Shown here in pieces: positions 3,834 to 62,871 of a stretch of DNA of 64,000 nucleotides (its first letter is position 1; every line of letters begins with the position of its first letter). The DNA is from Nanobdellota archaeon (GTDB lineage Archaea > Nanobdellota > Nanobdellia > Woesearchaeales > GW2011-AR4), in contig JBBSWH010000005.1 in NCBI GenBank assembly GCA_038046385.1, positions 1 through 64,000 of the forward strand, written 5' to 3'. The notes below the pieces were generated by a model. It was not told the DNA's origin. It did not search any database and saw nothing but the letters and a program-made list of their open reading frames with translations. The position numbers were made by a program, and so were the translations under genes.

Positions 3834-4625
3834 ATGTTCTACCACAACATAGACCCGGTTTTGCTCGGAATCGGAATTTTTCAGATTAGATACTATGGGC
3901 TTTTTTATGCAGCAGGATTCCTTATGCTATATTATCTTATGCCTTATCTTGCAAAGATTAAAGGGATTAAGTTTACAAAAGATGACGCTGCTGATTTTCT
4001 GGTTTATGCGATAATTGGGGTAGTTGCCGGGGCAAGAGCAGGATATATCCTGTTTTATAATCTGCCATTTTATTTACAGAATCCGCTCGATATACTTGCT
4101 GTCTGGAACGGCGGCCTGAGCTTCCACGGAGGGATTATCGGATTAGCTGTATCCACTTGGATTTTTTGCAGGGAAAAAAAAATAAATTTCTTTGACCTTG
4201 CAGACATAATTGTTGTGCCTGCTGCCCTTGCGCTTGCTCTTGGAAGAATGGGAAATTTCATGAACGCCGAGCTTTTTGGAAGAATAACCGATGTTTCATG
4301 GTGCATTGACTACTCAAAAAATGTTTTTGTGCAGGGATTGCCTGAAGGATGCAGGCACCCGTCTCAGATTTATGCTTCTCTGAAGAACCTCGTTATATTC
4401 GGCGTTTTGTGGCGCATTAAAGACAGAAAACTGCCTTCCGGCTTTATGTTCTGGACTTTTGTTGCTTTATACGGGCTTCTTAGGACATTTATTGAGTTTT
4501 TCAGGCAGCCGGACGAGCAGGTTGGTTTTATTTTCCAATATTTCACAATGGGGCAGCTGCTTAGCTTTCCGCTTTTCCTTATAGGGATTTACATGCTTTA
4601 TAGGTTAAAAAATAAATTCCAATGA
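3834..4625 (+). CDS. lgt: Prolipoprotein diacylglyceryl transferase (canonical type)
   Basis: IRYYG, GARAGY, WNGGLSFHGG, GRMGNFMNAELFG, HPSQIY, RTFIEFFR motifs. Confidence 0.93.
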   Translation: MFYHNIDPVLLGIGIFQIRYYGLFYAAGFLMLYYLMPYLAKIKGIKFTKDDAADFLVYAIIGVVAGARAGYILFYNLPFYLQNPLDILAVWNGGLSFHGGIIGLAVSTWIFCREKKINFFDLADIIVVPAALALALGRMGNFMNAELFGRITDVSWCIDYSKNVFVQGLPEGCRHPSQIYASLKNLVIFGVLWRIKDRKLPSGFMFWTFVALYGLLRTFIEFFRQPDEQVGFIFQYFTMGQLLSFPLFLIGIYMLYRLKNKFQ

Positions 4626-6986: not shown

Positions 6987-7152
6987 ATTTCATTGTTGCC
7001 CTTTTTAAGCTTTACGAAGGACAACTCCTTATTTTTCCTTAATAACGCATTAATAAACGTCCCTATATATTTCAACTGCATGATACTGAAAGCACACTGC
7101 ATAATAACGCACATGAAAACAAAAGCACAGCAAAAATCAGGAGGACAATAAG

Positions 7153-7428
7153 ATGAACAATGAATCGTATGGATGGGCACTTGTCATAATTATACTGCTC
7201 CTTGTGTCGGGCGGCATGATGATGGGCCGCGGCTATATGGGAATTGGAATGGGCTTTGGATTTGTGCTTATGGCACTTTTTTGGCTGGCTGTTATCTGGC
7301 TGATTTTTGGGCTTGCATCCAGCAAATCTGACAAAAAAAAGCCCATAGAAATACTAGAGGAAAGGTATGTTAAAGGAGAAATCCAAAAAAAGCAGTTTGA
7401 GCAGATGAAAAAGAAAATTCAAAGGTAA
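7153..7428 (+). CDS. SHOCT-domain membrane protein with Met/Gly-rich loop
   Basis: GGMMMGRGYMG, C-terminal EILEERYVKGEIQKKQFEQMK, GGAGG SD. Confidence 0.85.
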   Translation: MNNESYGWALVIIILLLVSGGMMMGRGYMGIGMGFGFVLMALFWLAVIWLIFGLASSKSDKKKPIEILEERYVKGEIQKKQFEQMKKKIQR

Positions 7429-7432
7429 AACG

Positions 7433-7642
7433 ATGAATCACCCGCCAAAAACGAAAGATGGATTTTTTCATAATCTAAAACATAGCCATTTTTTCATGAT
7501 TCTGTTGTGCATCGTCCCAGTAATAATGCTACTTGCTAGAAGCTCCTATCTTGGATGGAGGAGCAGCAATCTGCTCGTATTTGCATTATTTTTTGCATGC
7601 ATGCTAAGCCACACGCTCATGATGAAAAATCATAATCACTAG
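7433..7642 (+). CDS. Small His/Cys/Met membrane protein (DUF2933-like)
   Basis: HFFMILLCIVP and ACMLSHTLMMKNHNH, typical of copper islands. Confidence 0.65.
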   Translation: MNHPPKTKDGFFHNLKHSHFFMILLCIVPVIMLLARSSYLGWRSSNLLVFALFFACMLSHTLMMKNHNH

Positions 7643-7673
7643 GATAAATGTAAAAATGGCCGGAGGTGAAAAT

Positions 7674-7706
7674 ATGGGAAAAGGAAAAACAAAAGGGTGC
7701 TGTTAG
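7674..7706 (+). CDS. Micropeptide MGKGKTKGCC (10 aa)
   Basis: GGAGGTGA SD at 7662-7669. Homologous micro-ORF at 61247-61276. An in-frame ATG at 7656 would give 16 aa. Confidence 0.65.
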   Translation: MGKGKTKGCC

Positions 7707-7833
7707 AATATATCGGTTTTTATTTTTTGAAGATATTTGGATAGGTTAAGATAAAAAATTTGCACTTATGCCACTACGGCTGCTTGCAGATTAACGCTGC
7801 AGCAAAAACAGTCAAGATACTAAAGGTATTAAA

Positions 7834-8508
7834 ATGGAAGAAGACACGTTTCGGATAAAAAAATCATATGCTTATGCAACGCTTGGGGTATTGCTGGCAT
7901 TCGGATTTTTTATGTATTCGCTTGTGCTTAACAATAATAACATTTCTGCAACGCAAGGAACAAGGATGATGAATGGCGATGCTAACACTGATTCGATGGC
8001 TGATCATCATAAGCCTGTTCAGGGAAAATCAAGCGGTTTTTTTGAGAGTGCAGTAGGAAAGCAGGCTCCTGAATTTGAACTGCAGGGCATTGAAGGAGCT
8101 GCTGTCAAATTAAGCGATTATAAAGGAAAAAATGTGATTTTGTTTTTCAGCGAAGGCAGCATGTGCTATCCTTCGTGCTGGAATCAGATTGCAGCGCTTT
8201 CAAAGGATGAAAGATTAAATTCAGATGGCACAGTTGCACTGTCAATTGTTGTTGATTCGCCGGCGCAATGGCAAAAAATAATGCAGAAAGCGCCTCAAAT
8301 GGCAGAATCAAATATTCTTTTTGACACGGCCAAAAAAGCCTCATCGGATTATGATGTTATTTTCCTTGCATCTTCGATGCACAAGGGCTCTTATCCCGGG
8401 CACACTTATTTCATAATTGACGGGGAAGGAATAATACGATACACAAAAGATGATCCGTCAATGGCAATAAGAAATGATGAGCTTGCTGCAGAATTGGCAA
8501 AACTTTGA
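7834..8508 (+). CDS. Membrane-anchored AhpC/TSA (redoxin) family protein
   Basis: APEFEL...LSDYKGKNVILFF, atypical CYPSC, SMADHH metal-binding-like linker. Confidence 0.8.
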   Translation: MEEDTFRIKKSYAYATLGVLLAFGFFMYSLVLNNNNISATQGTRMMNGDANTDSMADHHKPVQGKSSGFFESAVGKQAPEFELQGIEGAAVKLSDYKGKNVILFFSEGSMCYPSCWNQIAALSKDERLNSDGTVALSIVVDSPAQWQKIMQKAPQMAESNILFDTAKKASSDYDVIFLASSMHKGSYPGHTYFIIDGEGIIRYTKDDPSMAIRNDELAAELAKL

Positions 8509-8517
8509 GGCTAATAA

Positions 8518-9378
8518 ATGGAACCGACATTCATAATAGCATCTTTTATCACAGCATTTGTTGCAGGAATAGCAGCATTGCTGGCTCCATGCTGCATAAC
8601 TGTCCTGTTGCCAACTTACCTTAGCTCAATTTTCAGGCAGAAAAGAACCGTTGTTGCAATGACACTTGTTTTCTTTTTGGGACTGCTTGCCGTGTTTCTT
8701 CCGCTTGGGCTTGGATTTGCAAGCATCGGGACTTTGTTCAGCAAGAGCCATGACTGGCTTTTCATAGTTGGAGGAATTTTCCTATTAATGCTTGGAGCAT
8801 CCATATTGCTGGGATTGCATTTTTCTTTATCATTTACAAAGCATCCGAAAACAAAAATAACAGGCGCGGTGTCTGTTTTCATTCTTGGAATATTTTCTGC
8901 TTTTGCAACGCTTTGCTGCGCCCCGGTTCTTGCAGGGGTCATGGCATTGTCTATACTGCCAGGCTCAATTTTCTGGGGAGGTATGTACGCTCTTGCCTAT
9001 GTTATCGGAATGATTACACCTTTGCTGCTGATAGCAGCATTCCTTGACAAATTTGATTTTACAAAGAAATTTGAGAAGCTAAGCCAAGGCGTGAATTACA
9101 GGATTGCCGGAAGAGAAGTCACAATAACAATTGCTGAAATGATTTCAGGAACGATGTTTTTATTGCTTGGAATCTTCATAATCTATCTTGCGCAGGCCGG
9201 CAAGCTTGCAATGGAAAACAGCGCTATGCAGACTTCCATAAATATTTTCATGAGCAATTTGACAGCATCTATTAACAAATTCATTGCAGGAATGCCAACT
9301 ATAGCCTGGATAGCCATTGCTGCCTTGCCGATTGCTGTGTTTTTGCTAAGAAAATTGAAAAGGAAAACTTCAAAATGA
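8518..9378 (+). CDS. CcdA/DsbD-type transmembrane electron transporter
   Basis: AFVAGIAALLAPCC and LCCAPVLAG motifs, multiple TM segments. Confidence 0.85.
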   Translation: MEPTFIIASFITAFVAGIAALLAPCCITVLLPTYLSSIFRQKRTVVAMTLVFFLGLLAVFLPLGLGFASIGTLFSKSHDWLFIVGGIFLLMLGASILLGLHFSLSFTKHPKTKITGAVSVFILGIFSAFATLCCAPVLAGVMALSILPGSIFWGGMYALAYVIGMITPLLLIAAFLDKFDFTKKFEKLSQGVNYRIAGREVTITIAEMISGTMFLLLGIFIIYLAQAGKLAMENSAMQTSINIFMSNLTASINKFIAGMPTIAWIAIAALPIAVFLLRKLKRKTSK

Positions 9379-10139
9379 TTCCTTACAAGATAATTCCACC
9401 TTTGCAGATAGGTCCTTTTCATGTCAACATGTACGGGATTATGTTTGCGCTTGGAGCCTTCATTGCAATCAAGATTGCTGCGAAGGAAGCCAGAAAAAGA
9501 AATGCAAAAGAAGATGTGATTCATGATATTGCTTTGTACCTTCTCTTTGGCGGCATTATAGGAGCAAGGCTTTTTTACGTTTTATTTTACTGGCCTAATG
9601 ACGTGTCTTTTGATTTTTTCGATATTTTCAAAATATGGGAAGGTGGGCTTGCATTCTTTGGAGGGATTATTGGAGCGATCATCGTAGGATACTACTACCT
9701 CAGAAAGCGCAATCTTAGTTTCTGGGCTTATGCGGACATTTTTACAATTCCCCTAATTATTGGCCATATATTTGGAAGAGCAGGGGATTACCTTACAGGA
9801 GGCCACCCAGGAAAAATAACTAATTTGCCTTGGGCAATATACATGGATAATGCTTTAAGGCACCCGGTTGTTCTGTATGAGATAATTGGCCTTTTTGCAA
9901 TCCTTGGAATAATCTATCTATTAAAGAAAAAAAGCCATTTTGATGGATTCTTGTTTTGGCCATATATAACCTTGTATTCAATCCAAAGATTGTTTTTGGA
10001 TATTTTCAGGGCAGAGTCTACGGACCCAAAATTTTTGGGATTAACTCCGTCTCAATATATCGCCCTGATTATTGTTGCTGTTAGCTTGTATGCGATAGCA
10101 CGATTTAAATATAAAAAAATTCAAACGGAGGCGGTATAA
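9375..10139 (+). CDS. Divergent Lgt-family protein (second copy)
   Basis: NMYG, GARLFY, WEGGLAFFGG, GRAGD, HPVVLYE, QRLFLDIFR. Confidence 0.85.
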   Translation: MIPYKIIPPLQIGPFHVNMYGIMFALGAFIAIKIAAKEARKRNAKEDVIHDIALYLLFGGIIGARLFYVLFYWPNDVSFDFFDIFKIWEGGLAFFGGIIGAIIVGYYYLRKRNLSFWAYADIFTIPLIIGHIFGRAGDYLTGGHPGKITNLPWAIYMDNALRHPVVLYEIIGLFAILGIIYLLKKKSHFDGFLFWPYITLYSIQRLFLDIFRAESTDPKFLGLTPSQYIALIIVAVSLYAIARFKYKKIQTEAV

Positions 10140-11290: not shown

Positions 11291-11726
11291 CTATTTAATT
11301 TATGGATTACTGATAGCGGTGATTGCAATTGCAGCATACACTTTTGCAGGAATGGTTGATAATCAGCCGGCAGCTGCACCCAACATCCAAAATAATGCCC
11401 AAGGATTCGGGTTGATATCCACCGGCGGCACGGATGATGGAAATGTTCAGGTTGATTTAACGCCAAAAGGGATTGTTAATGGGCAATTTCTTGTTGATTT
11501 TGCGATTAACACGCATTCTGTTGACTTAAGCCAGCTTGACCTGAAAAAAATAACAACGCTGGAATACAGCGGGAAAAAAATCCAGCCATTGTCTGCCCCT
11601 GCATTAAGCGGGCATCACAACTCAGGCATAATTGCTTTTAACAGCGTTTCTGATTTAAAAAATTTCAAGATAACAATTGTTGGAATCCCCAACATTGAAG
11701 AAAGAGTTTTTGAGTGGAAATCCTAA
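11280..11726 (+). CDS. Exported His-motif protein of metal islands
   Basis: N-terminal TM, NTHSVDL and SGHH motifs. Confidence 0.7.
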   Translation: MKTDYLIYGLLIAVIAIAAYTFAGMVDNQPAAAPNIQNNAQGFGLISTGGTDDGNVQVDLTPKGIVNGQFLVDFAINTHSVDLSQLDLKKITTLEYSGKKIQPLSAPALSGHHNSGIIAFNSVSDLKNFKITIVGIPNIEERVFEWKS

Positions 11727-11728
11727 AA

Positions 11729-13303
11729 ATGAGGAATATAAATTTAAATCATAAAATTGCAGTAATTATGATAGTTTCTCTGCTCATAATATTGACCGCC
11801 TGCAGCCAGACTGATGATTCAATGCCTAATCATATGATGCCTATAAAAGAGATTTCTGAAGTGAAGCCGATTGGCAGAAGCGTTTCCGGGCTGGGAGAAG
11901 CAGAGCAATCAAGAATTGTTGAGTTAAAGGATAATCAAGCGTTTCAAATGGAAGCTAAGCCTATTGCCAAAGACATAAATGGCAATAAAATAATGATGTA
12001 TGCTTACAATGGCCAGATGCCTGGCCCTTTGATAAAAGCAAAACAGGGCAGCTTAATTTATGTTAATTTTACAAACAACATCGATATGGAAACAACAATC
12101 CATTGGCACGGAATAAGGTTAGATAACAAATTTGACGGTGTTGATGGGGCAAGCCAGAAGCCTGTGAAGCCAGGGGAAAGCTTTCTTTATGAAATCAGGC
12201 TTCCAGACGAAGGAATTTACTGGTATCATCCGCACATAAGGGAAGATTTGCAACAGGAACTTGGTTTGTATGGCAATATCTTAGTTGAGCCAAAAGACAA
12301 GGATTATTTCAATAAAGTGGATAATGAAATTGCTTTATTTTTGGATGACATAAAAATGAATGGCAATGATATCGAGCCATTCAACAGCCAGTTTGCAACA
12401 TTCACAATAATGGGCAGGTTTGGAAATGTGATGCTTGTGAATGGGGAAACGTACTATAGATTAAATGCAAATAAAGGAGAATCTGTAAGATTTTATTTGA
12501 CTAATTCTGCAAACATAAGGACATTTAATTTTATGATTGGAGATCATAAGCTGAAGGTTGTAGGAAGCGATTCTGGCAAATATGAAAAAGAATCTATTGC
12601 CAACTCCATTATAATCTCTCCAGGTGAAAGATATACTGCAGAAGTTCTTTTTGACAAAGCAGGAATTTTCAAAATTATCCATAGAACTCCCAATAAAGAC
12701 TACATTCTTGGAGAGGTTATTGTCAACGAAGCTTCTGGAAGTGTTAATGATGAATTTTATGAATTAAAGGAAAATGAAGAGATTAAGAGCTCAATAGCGC
12801 CCTTTAGAAGATATTTTTCTTCTGAGCCAGATTATATTTTCAATCTAGAAATAAATCAAGAATCTATGGGGAAGATGGAAAGCAGAGCCAGCAATGAAGG
12901 CATAGAATGGGAAGACACGGGGCATGATGAAATGATGAATTCCATGTCGACAGCCAACAATGTAAGATGGATGATTGTTGATGCTTTGACCGGCAAGGCA
13001 AATATGGACAATAATTACAAAGTTAAAGCTGGAGACATCAAAAAAATAAGATTTGTTAACGACAAAGATTCCATGCACCCGATGCAACATCCAATGCATT
13101 TGCACGGGCAAAAGTTCCTTGTTTTAAGTGTTGACGGAGTTGAAAATGAAAATTTAGGATGGAAAGACACTGTCCTTGTCCCTACGGGAAAAAATGTGGA
13201 TATACTTATTGAGTTTTCAAACCCTGGAGAATGGATGCTCCACTGCCATATTGCAGAGCATCTTGAAGCCGGAATGGCAACAATGTTCACGGTCTCACAA
13301 TAA
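11729..13303 (+). CDS. Multicopper oxidase lipoprotein (CueO/laccase-like)
   Basis: HWHG, WYHPH, HPMHLHG, HCHIAEHLEAGM copper motifs; lipobox LTA-C. Confidence 0.93.
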   Translation: MRNINLNHKIAVIMIVSLLIILTACSQTDDSMPNHMMPIKEISEVKPIGRSVSGLGEAEQSRIVELKDNQAFQMEAKPIAKDINGNKIMMYAYNGQMPGPLIKAKQGSLIYVNFTNNIDMETTIHWHGIRLDNKFDGVDGASQKPVKPGESFLYEIRLPDEGIYWYHPHIREDLQQELGLYGNILVEPKDKDYFNKVDNEIALFLDDIKMNGNDIEPFNSQFATFTIMGRFGNVMLVNGETYYRLNANKGESVRFYLTNSANIRTFNFMIGDHKLKVVGSDSGKYEKESIANSIIISPGERYTAEVLFDKAGIFKIIHRTPNKDYILGEVIVNEASGSVNDEFYELKENEEIKSSIAPFRRYFSSEPDYIFNLEINQESMGKMESRASNEGIEWEDTGHDEMMNSMSTANNVRWMIVDALTGKANMDNNYKVKAGDIKKIRFVNDKDSMHPMQHPMHLHGQKFLVLSVDGVENENLGWKDTVLVPTGKNVDILIEFSNPGEWMLHCHIAEHLEAGMATMFTVSQ

Positions 13304-16192: not shown

Positions 16193-16639
16193 ATGAAAAT
16201 AATCTTCAAAAAGCCTTATTTATACTGGACATTCGGAATATTTTTTGGATATTTCTTATTGAATGCCTACCTAAGCGATTTTTTTTATGACATGAAGTTT
16301 ATCGGGTACTACCTGGAGACTATAAACTGGGGCAAATTTGTTATTAGCGTATCTTTGTCTGTTTTAATTGCTGCTCTTGTGGCGGCAAATGCAGTATACC
16401 TTTACATAAGGTATAAAGAGCATAAAAATCTCAAAGTTGAGGGAACCCTGGCCTGTGCAGGAACTTTTGGTGGATTGGCAACCGGGGTCTGTTCAATATG
16501 CGCTGCAGGAATCCTTCCATTTATGCTTGATTTAATGGGAATCTCATTCACTTTTGGAACGCTTCCATTGAAAGGAATTGAAATCCAGATTTTGACTGCT
16601 GCATTATTATTTGCCGGCTTGTGGGGGATAAAAAAATGA
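16193..16639 (+). CDS. Membrane protein with CxxC (VCSIC)
   Basis: Similar to 4622-5176. Confidence 0.75.
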   Translation: MKIIFKKPYLYWTFGIFFGYFLLNAYLSDFFYDMKFIGYYLETINWGKFVISVSLSVLIAALVAANAVYLYIRYKEHKNLKVEGTLACAGTFGGLATGVCSICAAGILPFMLDLMGISFTFGTLPLKGIEIQILTAALLFAGLWGIKK

Positions 16640-18825
16640 AAAAAGAAGTAACTTTCTCTATAAGGGGGATGCACTGCGCCAGCTGCTCAAACATAATCAC
16701 AAGGGCACTAACCAAAACTGAAGGAGTTGAGAGTGCAGTTGTAAATTATTCTACGGAAAAGGCAAATGTGACTTTTGACGGAAATATTTTAGAAGAAGAT
16801 TTGATAAAAATAATAGAGAAAAAAGGCTACAAAGCCTCAGTAGCAAAAGATTTGCAGCAGGAAAAGAAAAAGAAACTTGAAGAGATTCTGTCATTAAAGA
16901 AAAGTTTTCTCATAAGCCTTGTTTTGTCATTGCCGGCTTTTCTGATTGGAATGATATTTATGGAAGACGGCATGCTTTATTTTGGAATTATGGTGCCTTA
17001 TGCAGTTATAATACTTTTTTTGCTTTCCACACCGGTGCAATTTTGGATTGGATGGAGATTCTACAAAGGAACCTTTGCAGCGCTTAAGAACAAAAACGCA
17101 AACATGGACAGCCTCATTGCAATAGGAACAAGCGCGGCTTATTTCTACAGCGTTTATTCAGTTTTCGTTTTGAAAAGCGACGTCCAGTATTTTGAAGTGA
17201 GCGCGGTCCTTATAACATTTGTAATGATGGGCAAGTGGCTGGAAGCAAGAGCCAAAGGCAAGATGTCGGAAGCAATTGAAAAGCTAATTTCACTATCGCC
17301 GAAAACTGCAATTGTTGTAAAAAAAGGAAAAGAAGTGAAAGTGAGCGTCGATGAGTTAGCTGCAGGAGATATCATAATAGTAAAGCCAGGAGAAAAAATA
17401 CCGGTTGACGGAATAATAACAGAAGGCAATTCATCAATTGACGAAAGCATGGTCACAGGGGAAAGCATACCGATTGACAAGGCAAAAGGGAGTTTAGTAA
17501 TTGGAGGGACCCTTAACAAACACGGGTCATTCAGGTTCAAGGCAACCAAAGTGGGGGCTGACACTACATTATCGCATATAATCAAATTGATAGAGGATGC
17601 ACAAGCCAAAAAAGCCCCAATACAGAGGTTTGCTGACAATGTTTCGTCTTATTTTGTCCCTATTGTTATTGTTATTTCTATTGTGACTTTTGCAGTCTGG
17701 TATTACCTATTGTCTTCTACATTTACATTTGCACTTATCAATGCAGTGTCTGTTCTTGTGATAGCCTGCCCATGCGCTTTGGGACTGGCGACGCCGACTG
17801 CAATACTTGTCGGAACCGGCCTTGGAGCAAAACAAGGCATTCTGATAAAAGGAGGGGATTCTCTGGAAAATGCGCACAAAGTCAGGCACGTGATTTTTGA
17901 CAAAACAGGCACTATCACAAAAGGCAAGCCGGAAGTGACTGACATAATATCCTTAAAATCCGGCGAGAAGGAGATAATACAGATTGCAGCAAGCATGGAA
18001 AAAAATTCCGAGCATTCGCTTGCAGAATCAATCCTTAATAAGGCAAAATTGATGAACCTTAAGCTGGATAGTCCGTCTGGTTTTTTAGCAATTTCAGGCA
18101 AAGGCATAACCGCTTCAGTCAAAAACAAAAAGTATTATCTTGGGAACAGCAAGCTGGTCAAAAAAAGCCTGTCAAATGAAATTAAAAATAAGATAAATTC
18201 TTTGCAGGATCAGGGAAAAACTGTGGTGATGCTTGCTTCTGATAAGAATGTGCTTGGAATCATTGCAATTGCAGACACAATAAAAGATTCAGCAGTTGAG
18301 ACGATAAAACAGCTGCATTCAATGAAAATAGAGACGTATATGATAACCGGAGACAATGAAAGGGCGGCAAAGGCGATAGCCAAACAAGTCGGAATCAAAA
18401 ATGTATTTGCAGAGGTAATGCCAAAGGACAAAAGTGATTATGTGAAAAAACTCCAGAAAAAGGGGAAAGTTGCAATGGTGGGGGACGGGATTAATGACGC
18501 TCCTGCGCTGGCACAGGCAGATATCGGGATTGCAATGGGTTCCGGAACAGATGTTGCGATTGAAACTGGAAACATTGTTCTGATGAGAAACGATTTGATG
18601 GATGTGCCTGCTGCATTCAGGTTAAGCAGGATTACAATGTCAAAAATAAAGCAGAACATGTTCTGGGCGATGTTTTACAATGTGATGGGGATTCCGATTG
18701 CAGCAGGAGTTTTATATCCGCTTACCGGAATGCTTTTATCCCCCATGCTTGCAGGAGGGGCAATGGCATTAAGCTCAGTCAGCGTTGTGACAAACTCATT
18801 ATTATTAAAAAATAAGAGATTGTAG
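16636..18825 (+). CDS. copA: Cu(I)-exporting P1B-1 ATPase
   Basis: HMA GMHCASC, TGES, CPC, DKTGT, GDGIND, YN and MALSS motifs. Confidence 0.95.
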   Translation: MKKEVTFSIRGMHCASCSNIITRALTKTEGVESAVVNYSTEKANVTFDGNILEEDLIKIIEKKGYKASVAKDLQQEKKKKLEEILSLKKSFLISLVLSLPAFLIGMIFMEDGMLYFGIMVPYAVIILFLLSTPVQFWIGWRFYKGTFAALKNKNANMDSLIAIGTSAAYFYSVYSVFVLKSDVQYFEVSAVLITFVMMGKWLEARAKGKMSEAIEKLISLSPKTAIVVKKGKEVKVSVDELAAGDIIIVKPGEKIPVDGIITEGNSSIDESMVTGESIPIDKAKGSLVIGGTLNKHGSFRFKATKVGADTTLSHIIKLIEDAQAKKAPIQRFADNVSSYFVPIVIVISIVTFAVWYYLLSSTFTFALINAVSVLVIACPCALGLATPTAILVGTGLGAKQGILIKGGDSLENAHKVRHVIFDKTGTITKGKPEVTDIISLKSGEKEIIQIAASMEKNSEHSLAESILNKAKLMNLKLDSPSGFLAISGKGITASVKNKKYYLGNSKLVKKSLSNEIKNKINSLQDQGKTVVMLASDKNVLGIIAIADTIKDSAVETIKQLHSMKIETYMITGDNERAAKAIAKQVGIKNVFAEVMPKDKSDYVKKLQKKGKVAMVGDGINDAPALAQADIGIAMGSGTDVAIETGNIVLMRNDLMDVPAAFRLSRITMSKIKQNMFWAMFYNVMGIPIAAGVLYPLTGMLLSPMLAGGAMALSSVSVVTNSLLLKNKRL

Positions 18826-60761: not shown

Positions 60762-61157
60762 TTATCTTGCAGTGTAGCTGAAGATAAAAAGTAGGATGTT
60801 AACAAAATAGATGGAATAACATACTATACATACTGTCTTGACCTTGAAGTTAAGCATATAGGCAAGGTATATTGAACCTATCAGGGATAATATTGAAAGG
60901 TAAAATATTATGTTAGTCATTCCGAAAATGTTCAGTGTAATTACCAGAATGTAAAACGCCATTCCGGCCAGTCCGTTTGATATTCCAAAAAACAGATGCC
61001 CGTAGCCGCTTGTAAATGTCTTGCTGCACGACATCCTGTCGCTTATGTCACATACTGCCTTGTAGCTGCTGTCTTTTGAAGTTTTTCTTTCAACGTAAAA
61101 TGAATATAGGGAAAGAAGAAATCCAATTGCAGGGATTATCAATAATGAGGTTTGCAT
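60762..61157 (-). CDS. Vitamin K epoxide reductase (VKOR) family protein
   Basis: CDISDRMSCSKTFTSGYG loop, CIVC active site. Confidence 0.92.
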   Translation of the reverse strand: MQTSLLIIPAIGFLLSLYSFYVERKTSKDSSYKAVCDISDRMSCSKTFTSGYGHLFFGISNGLAGMAFYILVITLNIFGMTNIIFYLSILSLIGSIYLAYMLNFKVKTVCIVCYSIYFVNILLFIFSYTAR

Positions 61158-61246
61158 TGTATGTATTATTCGTTCCTTATTTATTAATTATTCGCATTCT
61201 TTACGCGCTAAAAAATAAAAAGAAAAAAATTTATCCAAAAAAAAAC

Positions 61247-61276: not shown

Positions 61277-61310
61277 TTTTTCACCTCTGAGTTTAATGTT
61301 TATTATTGGT

Positions 61311-61910
61311 TTATATGAAAACTTCGTTTTCATCGAACCTTACTTTTGGCTTTGAAGTATCTGCTGCATATCCTATCGGACACAATACGGTCGGCACAAT
61401 ATTGGCTGGGAGGTCCAGTATTTTTGCGTATGCTGCTGAATCAAATCCTTCCATTGGGCAAGAATCTATTCCGAGCGCTTTTGACCCGTTTAATGCATTG
61501 CCTAGAGCAAGATAAACCTGTCTTTGAGCCCATGCAAGCTTTTTCTGGTCGTCCATTCCTTTTTCAAATGATCTCATCATGTCAGCGTATTGCTTGGCGC
61601 CTGCGGCATCCATTCCATTTTTAATCATGAGCTTTTCAAGCCTGTCTATGTTGCCTGCAACATCCTTGTCTGCGCAGAACACGAGTAAATGAGAACATGT
61701 AGTTATCTGCAGTTGGTTCCATGAAACTGGAGCTAATTTTTCCTTTGTAGCCTGATCCGTTACTATTTTGATTTTCCACGGCTGTATATTGTAAGAGCTC
61801 GGAGAGTATCTTATGAGTTCTTTAAGTTTGTTTACCCTTTCTTCAGGAACCTTTTTTCCGTCGAATTTCTTTACTGCATATCTTCCCATTACTACTTTTT
61901 CGAATTCCAT
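61311..61910 (-). CDS. Nitroreductase (NfsB-like flavoprotein)
   Basis: RYAVKKF, SPSSYNIQPW, SCPMEGFD. Confidence 0.92.
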   Translation of the reverse strand: MEFEKVVMGRYAVKKFDGKKVPEERVNKLKELIRYSPSSYNIQPWKIKIVTDQATKEKLAPVSWNQLQITTCSHLLVFCADKDVAGNIDRLEKLMIKNGMDAAGAKQYADMMRSFEKGMDDQKKLAWAQRQVYLALGNALNGSKALGIDSCPMEGFDSAAYAKILDLPANIVPTVLCPIGYAADTSKPKVRFDENEVFI

Positions 61911-62113: not shown

Positions 62114-62425
62114 TTACATCATTGCTTTCTTCAGCTTCTCCTCAAATTCTGCAAATGATGCCTTATCCTTCATCTGATTGTTCCAGTATGCAATGCACGC
62201 TTCAACGCCTACTTGAGCCATTCGGTCCATTTTTGGGCCGATTGCCTTTTCATAAGCGGCTTTCATTTTTTCCTTCATCAGCTTTGACCATGCCTCATTG
62301 GCAAGCCCCATTATCATAGTAGCCATATTGTTGCTTTCGCAGCTGCATTCGTTTTCGCATCCGCATTTGCTGTCTTCGCAGCAGCTGTCGTTTGTTTCGC
62401 AGCACTTTTCTTCATTGCATCCCAT
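62114..62425 (-). CDS. Protein with metallothionein-like acidic Cys-rich N-terminus and Met-rich helical domain
   Basis: 9 Cys in the first 29 aa (CC, CxC); GGAGG SD. Confidence 0.8.
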   Translation of the reverse strand: MGCNEEKCCETNDSCCEDSKCGCENECSCESNNMATMIMGLANEAWSKLMKEKMKAAYEKAIGPKMDRMAQVGVEACIAYWNNQMKDKASFAEFEEKLKKAMM

Positions 62426-62490
62426 TTTCGTATCCTCCGATTGTTTGATTGATTATTTCTAATATTGGATATGCGATACTAATATTTAAA

Positions 62491-62510
62491 TATATCGGTT
62501 GTACGATATA
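62491..62510. promoter_or_regulatory. Inverted repeat, candidate PadR operator
   Basis: TATATCG-N6-CGATATA next to a TATA-like TATTTAAATA, between divergent genes. Confidence 0.55.
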
Positions 62511-62556
62511 CCAATCTAAGAAAAGTATAAATAGGATTCGTTATTCTTACCCTAAT

Positions 62557-62871
62557 ATGAGGAAGTGCTGTGAGATGAAGGGTTTTCTTAGCTTTCTTGT
62601 CCTCAAGCTAATAGGGAAAAACAATATGTCAGGAGAGGAGTTAAGCGAGGAGCTTAAGAAAAGAAAGGGAACAAAGCCAAGCCCTGGCACTATTTATCCA
62701 GTTCTGAAAGCCTTGAGCGAGAACGGCTTCATAGAGGAAGTCAAAGGAAAAGGCAAGCTGAAGAAATACAAAATAACAAAAAAAGGCCAAAAAGAGCTTG
62801 AGATAGCAACTCACAAGTTCTGCAATCTTTTCTATGACATGGAAAACGAATTTCACAGGTGCTGTAAATAA
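62557..62871 (+). CDS. PadR-family regulator with N- and C-terminal CC motifs
   Basis: MRKCCEM...SPGTIYPVL...YKITKKG...HRCCK. Confidence 0.9.
   Translation: MRKCCEMKGFLSFLVLKLIGKNNMSGEELSEELKKRKGTKPSPGTIYPVLKALSENGFIEEVKGKGKLKKYKITKKGQKELEIATHKFCNLFYDMENEFHRCCK

Follow-up and report, generated by a model that had tools for sequence, protein, structure and literature searches.

Can open reading frames (ORFs) of only nine or ten codons be genes, and what could products so small do? The question arises from a 64,000-nucleotide stretch of a Nanobdellota archaeon of the Woesearchaeales (contig JBBSWH010000005.1, positions 1 to 64,000), called here the window, in which an original prediction had singled out two tiny ORFs, MGKGKTKGCC (tiny ORF 1) and MVGKGKGCC (tiny ORF 2), as homologous genes for a metal-binding or thiol-buffering peptide. 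Both exist as described (Table 1), both are too small for gene callers, and both carry a strong Shine-Dalgarno (SD) sequence of the GAGGTGA type at equal spacing. They are probably genes for minimal thiol peptides or else sensors of cysteine supply. We tentatively favour a translated micro-peptide whose C-terminal vicinal dithiol would act in thiophilic-metal and thiol-redox stress; a cis-acting sensor of Cys codons fits nearly as well as a metal-binding or thiol-buffering peptide.

Start signals, relatives and coding pattern

The assembly (labelled G000; below, G numbers denote genomes, L numbers loci and K numbers blastp clusters of neighbouring ORFs) comprises 19 contigs and 1,283,103 bases and is 85% complete. 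Scanning all 19 contigs for short ORFs that end in Cys-Cys-stop gave 148 raw matches. Among those shorter than 16 aa or preceded by an SD-like word, four had such a word upstream, and only in the two window ORFs did an ATG follow it at SD-like spacing; the remaining pair start with GTG and TTG, with the word ~15 nt upstream. In this genome the arrangement GAGGTG-N4-9-ATG truly marks starts: 38 of its 47 occurrences open ORFs of at least 30 aa, and tiny ORFs 1 and 2 are two of the nine short exceptions. Another short exception is a 29-codon Lys-rich ORF ending in ...CEFC (contig C11, position 31882, + strand), with a GAGGTG SD at start distance.

Neither ORF is a decayed 3' end or a read-through extension of the upstream gene. 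This origin was ruled out since both are out of frame with that gene (7674-7433 = 241 and 61910-61276 = 634, both 1 mod 3). Contigs from four DNA sequencing runs over 7100-8600 were identical wherever they covered tiny ORF 1, so there was no variation to analyse there; a search of sequencing runs for this locus matched 13 DNA runs, from groundwater or unlabelled, and no RNA run. Scans of the whole window found no Rfam family and no tRNA, and a search of the 19 contigs found no archaeal small-subunit rRNA; the presence of ribosomal protein S8e marks the assembly as archaeal. RNA folding around both ORFs was no better than that of shuffled sequences (z = +1.33, -0.37, -0.12 and -0.02), and in the minimum free energy structure at site 2 the purine-rich ORF interior pairs with the downstream U-run.

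We searched 43 genomes of the genus for AGGTG, 4-10 nt, ATG, 9-45 nt, GGN TGY TGY and a stop, without imposing the frame. The 18 places found comprise 13 in-frame ORFs of 8-12 codons in 11 genomes, one frame-broken Lys-rich copy (contig C10 of G030, where the ATG is out of frame with Cys-Cys-stop) and four unrelated sequences, and the reversed pattern gave 0 matches. Across 401 genomes of the order, reading of 82 places identified 28 family ORFs, in 24 genomes; the reversed pattern gave ~14 matches, also by reading. Related genomes do hold homologues with the SD-ATG...Gly-Cys-Cys-stop arrangement, whose absence would have refuted the original prediction, and frame-breaking variation among the genus finds is limited to the single G030 copy. 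Six further copies with weaker SDs turned up upstream of DUF5676 genes in the genus, which raises the family to at least 17 of 43 genus genomes and makes the SD-dependent counts lower bounds. Searching one genome per prokaryotic species for the MGKGK...GCC form yielded 10 records, of which seven are labelled Woesearchaeota, Nanoarchaeia or Nanoarchaeota and three 'uncultured Methanosarcinales'. Among 36 genomes sampled from other orders of the class we found nothing beyond one unverified in-frame candidate (G453, MRMKRLEKPGCC). The family occurs in Woesearchaeota-type DPANN archaea.

After removal of duplicates, the non-redundant set consists of 40 loci of 7-15 codons (mostly 7-12), with the six DUF5676-linked copies extra. 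These 40 loci have 40 distinct ORF DNA sequences encoding only 26 peptides, and MCGGGCC, MGKGKKGCC and MGKGKSKGCC are each encoded in four different ways. The Gly codon before Cys-Cys is GGA in 32 loci, GGG in five, GGT in two and GGC in one; TGC and TGT are used 22 and 18 times for the first Cys and 13 and 27 times for the second; stops are TAA (27), TAG (9) and TGA (4). Length differences among copies are whole codons, and same-length pairs show 263, 290 and 412 differences at codon positions 1, 2 and 3, so that the third position varies most. This variation in synonymous codons, stops and length, together with the lack of an Rfam match and the shuffle-like folds, argues for a protein-coding pattern and not for an RNA or DNA element, and it bears out the homology and coding-type selection that had been claimed from two sequences. 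Every copy is SD-led, with 4-8 nt (most often 5) between GGTG and ATG in the 40 homologues.

All 40 loci end in TGY TGY-stop, a feature imposed by the pattern in most searches. Anchoring the search on the N-terminus alone (SD plus MGKGK) gave 18 matches. Fifteen are ORFs of at most 13 aa, namely 11 of 8-10 codons, all ending in KGCC-stop, three other short ORFs and one MGKGKGCR (G064); the remaining three matches are long proteins. The reversed pattern matched once. When the Gly requirement was dropped in the genus search, Gly still preceded Cys-Cys in 11 of 11 in-frame copies, the other five matches being out of frame or interrupted by a stop. Gly-Cys-Cys-stop is the invariant part of the family and reflects a residue-level constraint at the C-terminus, and the conserved features are the short length, a Gly-rich spacer and this end. 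Each peptide has two Cys, or three in the MCG[GD]GCC type, within 7-12 residues.

The remainder of the peptide is freer. G065 has an orthologue of tiny ORF 1 in the same gene order (MGKGKSKGCC) and G030 the frame-broken copy, and relatives of tiny ORF 2 in a PadR/nitroreductase context are found in G012 (MEKGKKGKGCC) and G186 (MKGGEGCC). The order search also revealed a second form, MCGGGCC or MCGDGCC, and intermediates (MGGGGCC, MLGGGGCC, MKGGEGCC, MKGDEDGCC, MNGPGCC and MQAQGCC). One arrangement (regulator, tiny ORF, in some cases a pentapeptide-repeat protein, nitroreductase) is common to the MCGDGCC, MGGGGCC, MKGGEGCC and MEKGKKGKGCC loci, and site 2 of G000 has the same partners in another order. 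Basic character is therefore not essential, and the Lys-rich part that the original prediction took for a family trait is not conserved (MKGDEDGCC, MCGGGCC, MQAQGCC). The tiny ORFs of these contexts form one family with a variable spacer. On one contig of G202 (C43, 1920-1959 and 8064-8103), two identical MKGDEDGCC ORFs with their SD lie 6 kb apart, and may represent a repeat or a duplicated island.

Genes around the tiny ORFs

For the neighbourhoods, adjacent ORFs were clustered by blastp and Pfam was run on one representative per cluster and on selected single-locus ORFs. HMA-bearing, copper-type P1B ATPases lie near tiny ORFs in six loci. The order in G147 is ArsR, 15 nt, tiny ORF, 44 nt, ATPase; the ATPase begins 4 nt after the tiny ORF in G117 and lies upstream of it in G213. 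Two-helix proteins recur too: 10 of the 29 DUF5676 genes of the genus have a tiny ORF at most 500 nt upstream, and His/Met-rich proteins of the DUF2933 type are encoded upstream of the tiny ORF in G000, G065 and G030 and directly downstream (TAAATG) in G118 and G215. Nitroreductase-family genes occur in six loci, upstream of the ORF in G000 and downstream in five. The recurring regulators are PadR, Lrp/AsnC and ArsR, and other neighbours include peroxiredoxin, thioredoxin-reductase-like, ferritin, MsrA/MsrB, OsmC, cupredoxin and ferredoxin-thioredoxin-reductase-like proteins and two S-adenosylmethionine (SAM) methyltransferases, along with glutaredoxin-like CPWC proteins and rubrerythrin-like proteins recognised by sequence reading and not by Pfam. 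The MCG[GD]GCC type usually sits beside a divergent Lrp/AsnC regulator (L060, L061), as does MGGGGCC in L032, and precedes pentapeptide-repeat, nitroreductase and peroxiredoxin genes.

Both window sites conform to the metal and redox clusters first described, with multicopper oxidase and HMA-ATPase genes at site 1 and PadR, Cys-rich 103-aa protein, nitroreductase and VKOR genes at site 2 (Table 1).

Table 1. Coordinates of the two tiny ORFs, their signals and their neighbours in the window
Feature	Position	Strand	Remarks
Tiny ORF 1, MGKGKTKGCC + TAG	7674-7706	+	direct read: ATG GGA AAA GGA AAA ACA AAA GGG TGC TGT TAG
Tiny ORF 1 SD, GGAGGTGA	7662-7669	+	spacer AAAT, 4 nt to ATG
Tiny ORF 1 T-run, TTTTTATTTTTT	7717-7728	+	10 nt past stop
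Lgt homologues, full length	3834-4625 and 9375-10139	+	E 6e-75 and 1e-56
SHOCT-domain membrane protein, 91 aa	7153-7428	+	weak Pfam match (E 2e-4, below cut-off); operon-like string
Two-helix His/Met-rich membrane protein, 69 aa, DUF2933-like	7433-7642	+	ends 31 nt before tiny ORF 1
AhpC/TSA (thioredoxin-fold) protein	7834-8508	+	Pfam E 8e-20; 127 nt downstream of tiny ORF 1
Multi-pass membrane protein, 286 aa	8518-9378	+	two Cys-Cys pairs in predicted helices; no Pfam family
Multicopper oxidase	11714-13303	+	copper context
P-type ATPase, N-terminal HMA domain (CopA-like)	16621-18825	+	only HMA domain found in assembly
VKOR-family protein	60762-61157	-	89 nt downstream of tiny ORF 2; no SD
Tiny ORF 2 T9 run	61237-61245	-	begins 1 nt past stop
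Tiny ORF 2, MVGKGKGCC + TAA	61247-61276	-	direct read: ATG GTA GGA AAA GGA AAA GGG TGC TGT TAA
Tiny ORF 2 SD, GAGGTGA	61281-61287	-	spacer AAAA, 4 nt to ATG
Nitroreductase-family gene	61311-61910	-	ends 34 nt before tiny ORF 2
Protein of 103 aa, Cys-rich N-terminus	62114-62425	-	first gene of string; no Pfam family above cut-off
PadR-family regulator	62449-62871	+	divergent from site 2 string

Site 1 reads Lgt, DsbA-like, SHOCT protein, DUF2933-like 69-aa protein, tiny ORF, AhpC/TSA, Cys-Cys membrane protein and Lgt, followed by further ORFs, the multicopper oxidase, a thioredoxin-like gene, further ORFs and the HMA-ATPase; two thioredoxin-like and two Lgt genes lie in this region. The SHOCT-domain protein is conserved in G065 and G030, where the AhpC/TSA gene is likewise kept downstream of the tiny ORF. 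The 69-aa protein has no Pfam match alone and aligns over its full length (E 8e-6) with an 84-aa G215 protein that belongs to DUF2933 (E 7e-7) and is encoded directly 3' of the tiny ORF there. The T-run TTTTTATTTTTT after tiny ORF 1 is probably an archaeal oligo-T terminator. At site 2, the assembly's only two nitroreductase-family genes include the one directly ahead of tiny ORF 2, and the PadR-like cluster K21 is also divergent from the tiny ORFs of G012 and G186.

Several observations at these loci deserve record in their own right. The spacer ahead of the AhpC/TSA gene contains an imperfect palindrome, TTGCAG-N7-CTGCAGCAA (7790-7815, + strand), a possible operator, in which case the gene would have its own regulated promoter. 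The 103-aa protein of site 2 has 10 Cys in its first 29 residues, including two Cys-Cys pairs. Multi-pass membrane proteins outside any Pfam family and with Cys-Cys or CPxC in predicted helices (the 286-aa window protein, K44 in L048 and L049, and a 162-aa protein in L003) adjoin tiny ORFs or ATPase genes. Lgt is the bacterial prolipoprotein diacylglyceryl transferase, and here two homologues lie within an archaeal extracytoplasmic thiol/copper island. In L007, L048 and L049 (clusters K5 and K29), several secreted-looking proteins of 82-394 aa share the C-terminal ...MVGGC. Between the tiny ORF and DUF5676 in at least five genus genomes lies a conserved but unannotated ORF of 39-40 aa (oriented coordinates L091 1353, L092 1349, L093 1311, L096 1164, L097 1323) that begins M-x-x-(L/I/E)-C-(N/S)-C-G-x-x-C-x-C and gives this operon another small Cys-rich gene. 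Finally, a hairpin precedes the MCG[GD]GCC ORF by ~40-90 nt in L059 and L060, where in L060 it follows a 37-aa zinc-ribbon-like ORF, and by ~50-100 nt in L028. It has a conserved loop-like core, GGTTTAGG(C)CCCTTTTCC, with stems that vary between loci in a compensating way, and could be a terminator or an RNA element.

A possible thiol peptide or cysteine sensor

What would such ORFs do? In the reading that we favour, both would be real translated genes with a free, flexible micro-peptide as product, driven by the strong SD and usually encoded as the last cistron of a stress operon. The functional part would be the C-terminal Gly-Cys-Cys-COOH, a vicinal dithiol. The initiator Met would probably be removed where residue 2 is Gly or Cys, in line with the general rule for methionine aminopeptidase. 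With its adjacent thiolates the peptide could bind soft metals or metalloids (Cu(I), Hg(II), As(III), Cd(II)) and pass them on, either to the P1B-ATPase through its HMA domain or to membrane proteins rich in Cys, His or Met. Alternatively, dithiol/disulfide cycling could let the peptide serve the peroxiredoxin, glutaredoxin-like and thioredoxin-fold proteins encoded nearby as a small gene-encoded thiol, re-reduced by a flavoprotein such as the nearby nitroreductase-family or thioredoxin-reductase-like enzymes. From the observed conservation, coding-type variation, translation signals and neighbourhoods we infer that the peptide would accumulate, and likewise its chemistry and its partners.

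Several lines of evidence lead us to favour a trans-acting peptide. First, 30 of the 40 copies come just after a co-directional gene, often within 40 nt, and not in a 5' leader, and the same partner genes are found on either side of the ORF, as expected of a co-functioning product rather than of a leader. Second, the Gly at position -3 is conserved. Third, the neighbours are thiol- and metal-stress genes. Fourth, neither a stand-alone HMA chaperone nor a member of the gamma-glutamylcysteine ligase family was found in the 85%-complete assembly. The available text of a review (PMC7278568) mentions GshA-like matches in some DPANN genomes, so that absence of gamma-Glu-Cys ligase is not established across the group.

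Set against known systems, the family shares the full set of defining features with none. Metallothioneins and the small copper-binding peptides of bacteria, MymT among them, have many Cys in CxC or CC clusters over tens of residues and are linked to copper stress. The tiny archaeal peptides are also Cys-based, unannotated or tiny, and linked to copper stress, but with 2-3 Cys in 7-12 residues they have too few for a single-chain metal-thiolate cluster. The copZ gene often sits directly before that of a P1B-ATPase, a position that the tiny ORF shares (after ArsR in G147, directly before the ATPase in G117); unlike CopZ and other HMA chaperones, however, the 9-10-residue window peptides have no ferredoxin-like fold or MxCxxC, and ten residues cannot form an HMA domain. 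MerA ends in Cys-Cys, and large thioredoxin reductases end in Gly-Cys-Sec-Gly or Ser-Cys-Cys-Ser, tails that shuttle Hg(II) or electrons. The flexible end and adjacent Cys are similar, and thioredoxin-reductase-like and nitroreductase-family genes lie near the tiny ORFs, but those tails are part of an enzyme, whereas the archaeal 'tail' would be a free-standing gene product, of which we know no case in any system. Similarity to glutathione, gamma-Glu-Cys, bacillithiol, mycothiol and phytochelatins lies in a small thiol proposed alongside peroxidases, glutaredoxin-like proteins and metal pumps; candidate genes of such a thiol system near the tiny ORFs encode thioredoxin-reductase-like, nitroreductase, peroxiredoxin, glutaredoxin-like and OsmC proteins. 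To our knowledge, all known low-molecular-weight thiols are enzyme-made and not ribosomal. A full-text literature search returned nothing that describes such ORFs, DUF5676 or, for DPANN archaea, a thiol encoded by a gene.

A more far-reaching version of the same idea, which we regard as doubtful, is that a peptide of 7-12 residues is a genome-encoded small thiol, the free-standing counterpart of glutathione or of the MerA and thioredoxin reductase tails, replacing the enzymatic synthesis of a thiol cofactor in cells of minimal biosynthetic capacity. Peroxidases would receive electrons from it, and pumps and Cys-rich membrane proteins would receive Cu(I), Hg(II) or As(III); Gly-Cys-Cys-COOH would be its only essential part.

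A number of points weigh against a trans-acting peptide. Nearly all prokaryotic ORFs of at most 15 codons known to us are cis regulators, so that the prior favours a cis role; two thiols are few for a chelator, and peptides this small are usually short-lived in cells. Two to three copies per genome occur in different stress islands (G000, G014, G030, G118, G202 and G215, the last with three if one counts a 15-codon ORF ending in GGCC found outside the family searches), and such a spread, one copy to a stress island, is what sensors serving one operon each would show. The distribution is patchy (24 of 401 order genomes, 17 of 43 genus genomes), the G064 copy in a homologous island has lost its last Cys, and together with the frame-broken G030 copy this indicates that the gene is dispensable. 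A co-directional gene was called downstream of 34 of the 40 copies, which means that a cis role is rarely excluded. Of the 40 homologues, 25 have a T-run (at least 5 T) no more than 45 nt past the stop, compared with 343 of 1267 (27%) G000 ORFs of at least 120 aa, an enrichment that fits a leader plus terminator as well as an operon end. In the related loci of G128, G221 and G284, moreover, the ORF lies between transketolase and DAHP-synthase genes, a context that is neither metal nor redox.

Much of this evidence is what a cis-acting sensor would leave, a serious if rather unlikely possibility in our view. The ribosome would stall on the pair of Cys codons at the end whenever charged Cys-tRNA runs short, as when oxidants or thiophilic metals deplete free cysteine, or else the nascent ...Gly-Cys-Cys would respond to metal or oxidant at the stop; either event would alter termination at the T-run or translation of the next gene, and so tune thiol- and metal-stress genes. 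Such a sensor would be the archaeal counterpart of the mycobacterial polycysteine short ORFs, which the available part of a preprint describes as leaderless, cysteine-responsive attenuators in which two consecutive Cys codons suffice for the response (Canestrari et al., bioRxiv 10.1101/834739). As far as that text goes, the likeness extends to unannotated, very short ORFs that contain two or more Cys codons in a row, occur several times per genome and precede operon genes. Besides the T-runs, the downstream genes, the multiple copies and the record of ORFs this short, several features are consistent with sensing. Three of the seven codons of the MCG[GD]GCC type, found by divergent Lrp/AsnC ahead of stress genes, are Cys; some copies lie close enough to the next gene for translational coupling (TAAATG, or a gap of 4 nt); and the interior of the ORF is built from very common codons (AAA 73, GGA 43 over the 40 loci).

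Other observations fit a sensor less well. The mycobacterial ORFs, in the same text, come first in their transcripts without a leader, precede cysteine-metabolism loci and act via an RNA duplex, whereas the archaeal ORFs are all SD-led and mostly follow another gene, adjoin metal/redox genes and keep a terminal Gly-Cys-Cys. The genes around them are for metal export, thiol redox, oxidative stress and regulation, with aromatic amino-acid genes in three loci; none of the annotated neighbours was recognised as a gene for cysteine synthesis. Neither window site showed a stable or conserved RNA structure, the folds being shuffle-like, yet A/U-rich pairings with the T-run are possible. A pure codon sensor would need neither the invariant Gly before Cys-Cys nor a Gly-rich spacer, and partner genes would not be expected on either side. 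Downstream genes are heterogeneous, some with an SD a few bases past the ORF and many others without an SD and with their own A/T-rich upstream region, and therefore possibly their own promoters; no uniform attenuator architecture emerges. The stop of the G109 tiny ORF falls within a convergent SHMT gene, which leaves nothing co-directional downstream for the ORF to control. We also know of no demonstration of ribosome-mediated attenuation in archaea.

A modified peptide is improbable. Here S-lipidation or prenylation, S- or carboxyl-methylation, or azole formation would yield a membrane-anchored or secreted small molecule. GGCC- and GGGCC-like endings do resemble the prenylated Cys-Cys tails of Rab proteins, two Lgt homologues flank site 1, and the tiny Gly/Cys-rich ORF beside pentapeptide-repeat and nitroreductase-family genes recalls mcbA/mcbG/mcbC. 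In G118, G215 and G213 the ORFs adjoin SAM methyltransferases, one of thiopurine-S-methyltransferase/TehB type, and bacterial copper clusters pair DUF2933 with isoprenylcysteine carboxyl methyltransferase (ICMT) genes, according to the available text of PMC8478169. The prenylation raised in the original prediction nevertheless found no backing: tblastn detected no ICMT/PEMT-family gene in the window or in any fetched locus, prenyltransferases not having been searched for, and the single PEMT/ICMT-family gene of G000 lies on contig 19 beside glmS and a GNAT gene. Unlike Rab tails, the tiny ORFs are free-standing, out of frame with upstream genes and devoid of a GTPase or cargo domain. They differ from a microcin B17-type ribosomally synthesised and post-translationally modified peptide in having no leader for a modifying enzyme to bind, and no YcaO or cyclodehydratase occurred among the Pfam-scanned neighbours (cluster representatives and 15 single-locus proteins, not every ORF). 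No modifying enzyme is common to all contexts. A microcin-B17-like reading was rejected on the YcaO result and because thioredoxin-reductase-like, ferritin, MsrA/B and peroxiredoxin genes mark the loci as oxidative-stress islands.

That the ORFs are non-functional, either chance ORFs in purine-rich spacers or a DNA or RNA element (a protein-binding site, a terminator arm) open by accident, is barely credible: the low-complexity interior can pair with the U-run at site 2 and the distribution is patchy, but third positions, stops and whole-codon length vary around a constant frame, ATG, SD spacing and Gly-Cys-Cys-stop, identical peptides come from different DNA sequences, the reversed patterns matched 0 times (genus) and once (MGKGK-anchored), and neither folding nor Rfam points to a structured element.

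Meaning for the DPANN archaea

Annotation misses genes of 7-12 codons, yet here such a family is conserved, occurs in several copies and is linked to metal and oxidative-stress islands, and its hosts are an abundant group of uncultured groundwater archaea. A product acting in trans would be a thiol cofactor or metal carrier synthesised on the ribosome, a kind of molecule of which we know no example, and could help to answer what DPANN archaea use in place of glutathione; should the genome-encoded thiol prove true, few stand-alone protein-coding genes whose product acts in trans would be shorter. In a cis role, the ORFs would give archaea their first candidate for the sensing of cysteine or thiol stress through the ribosome. 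Either outcome argues for systematic searches for motif-terminated micro-ORFs.

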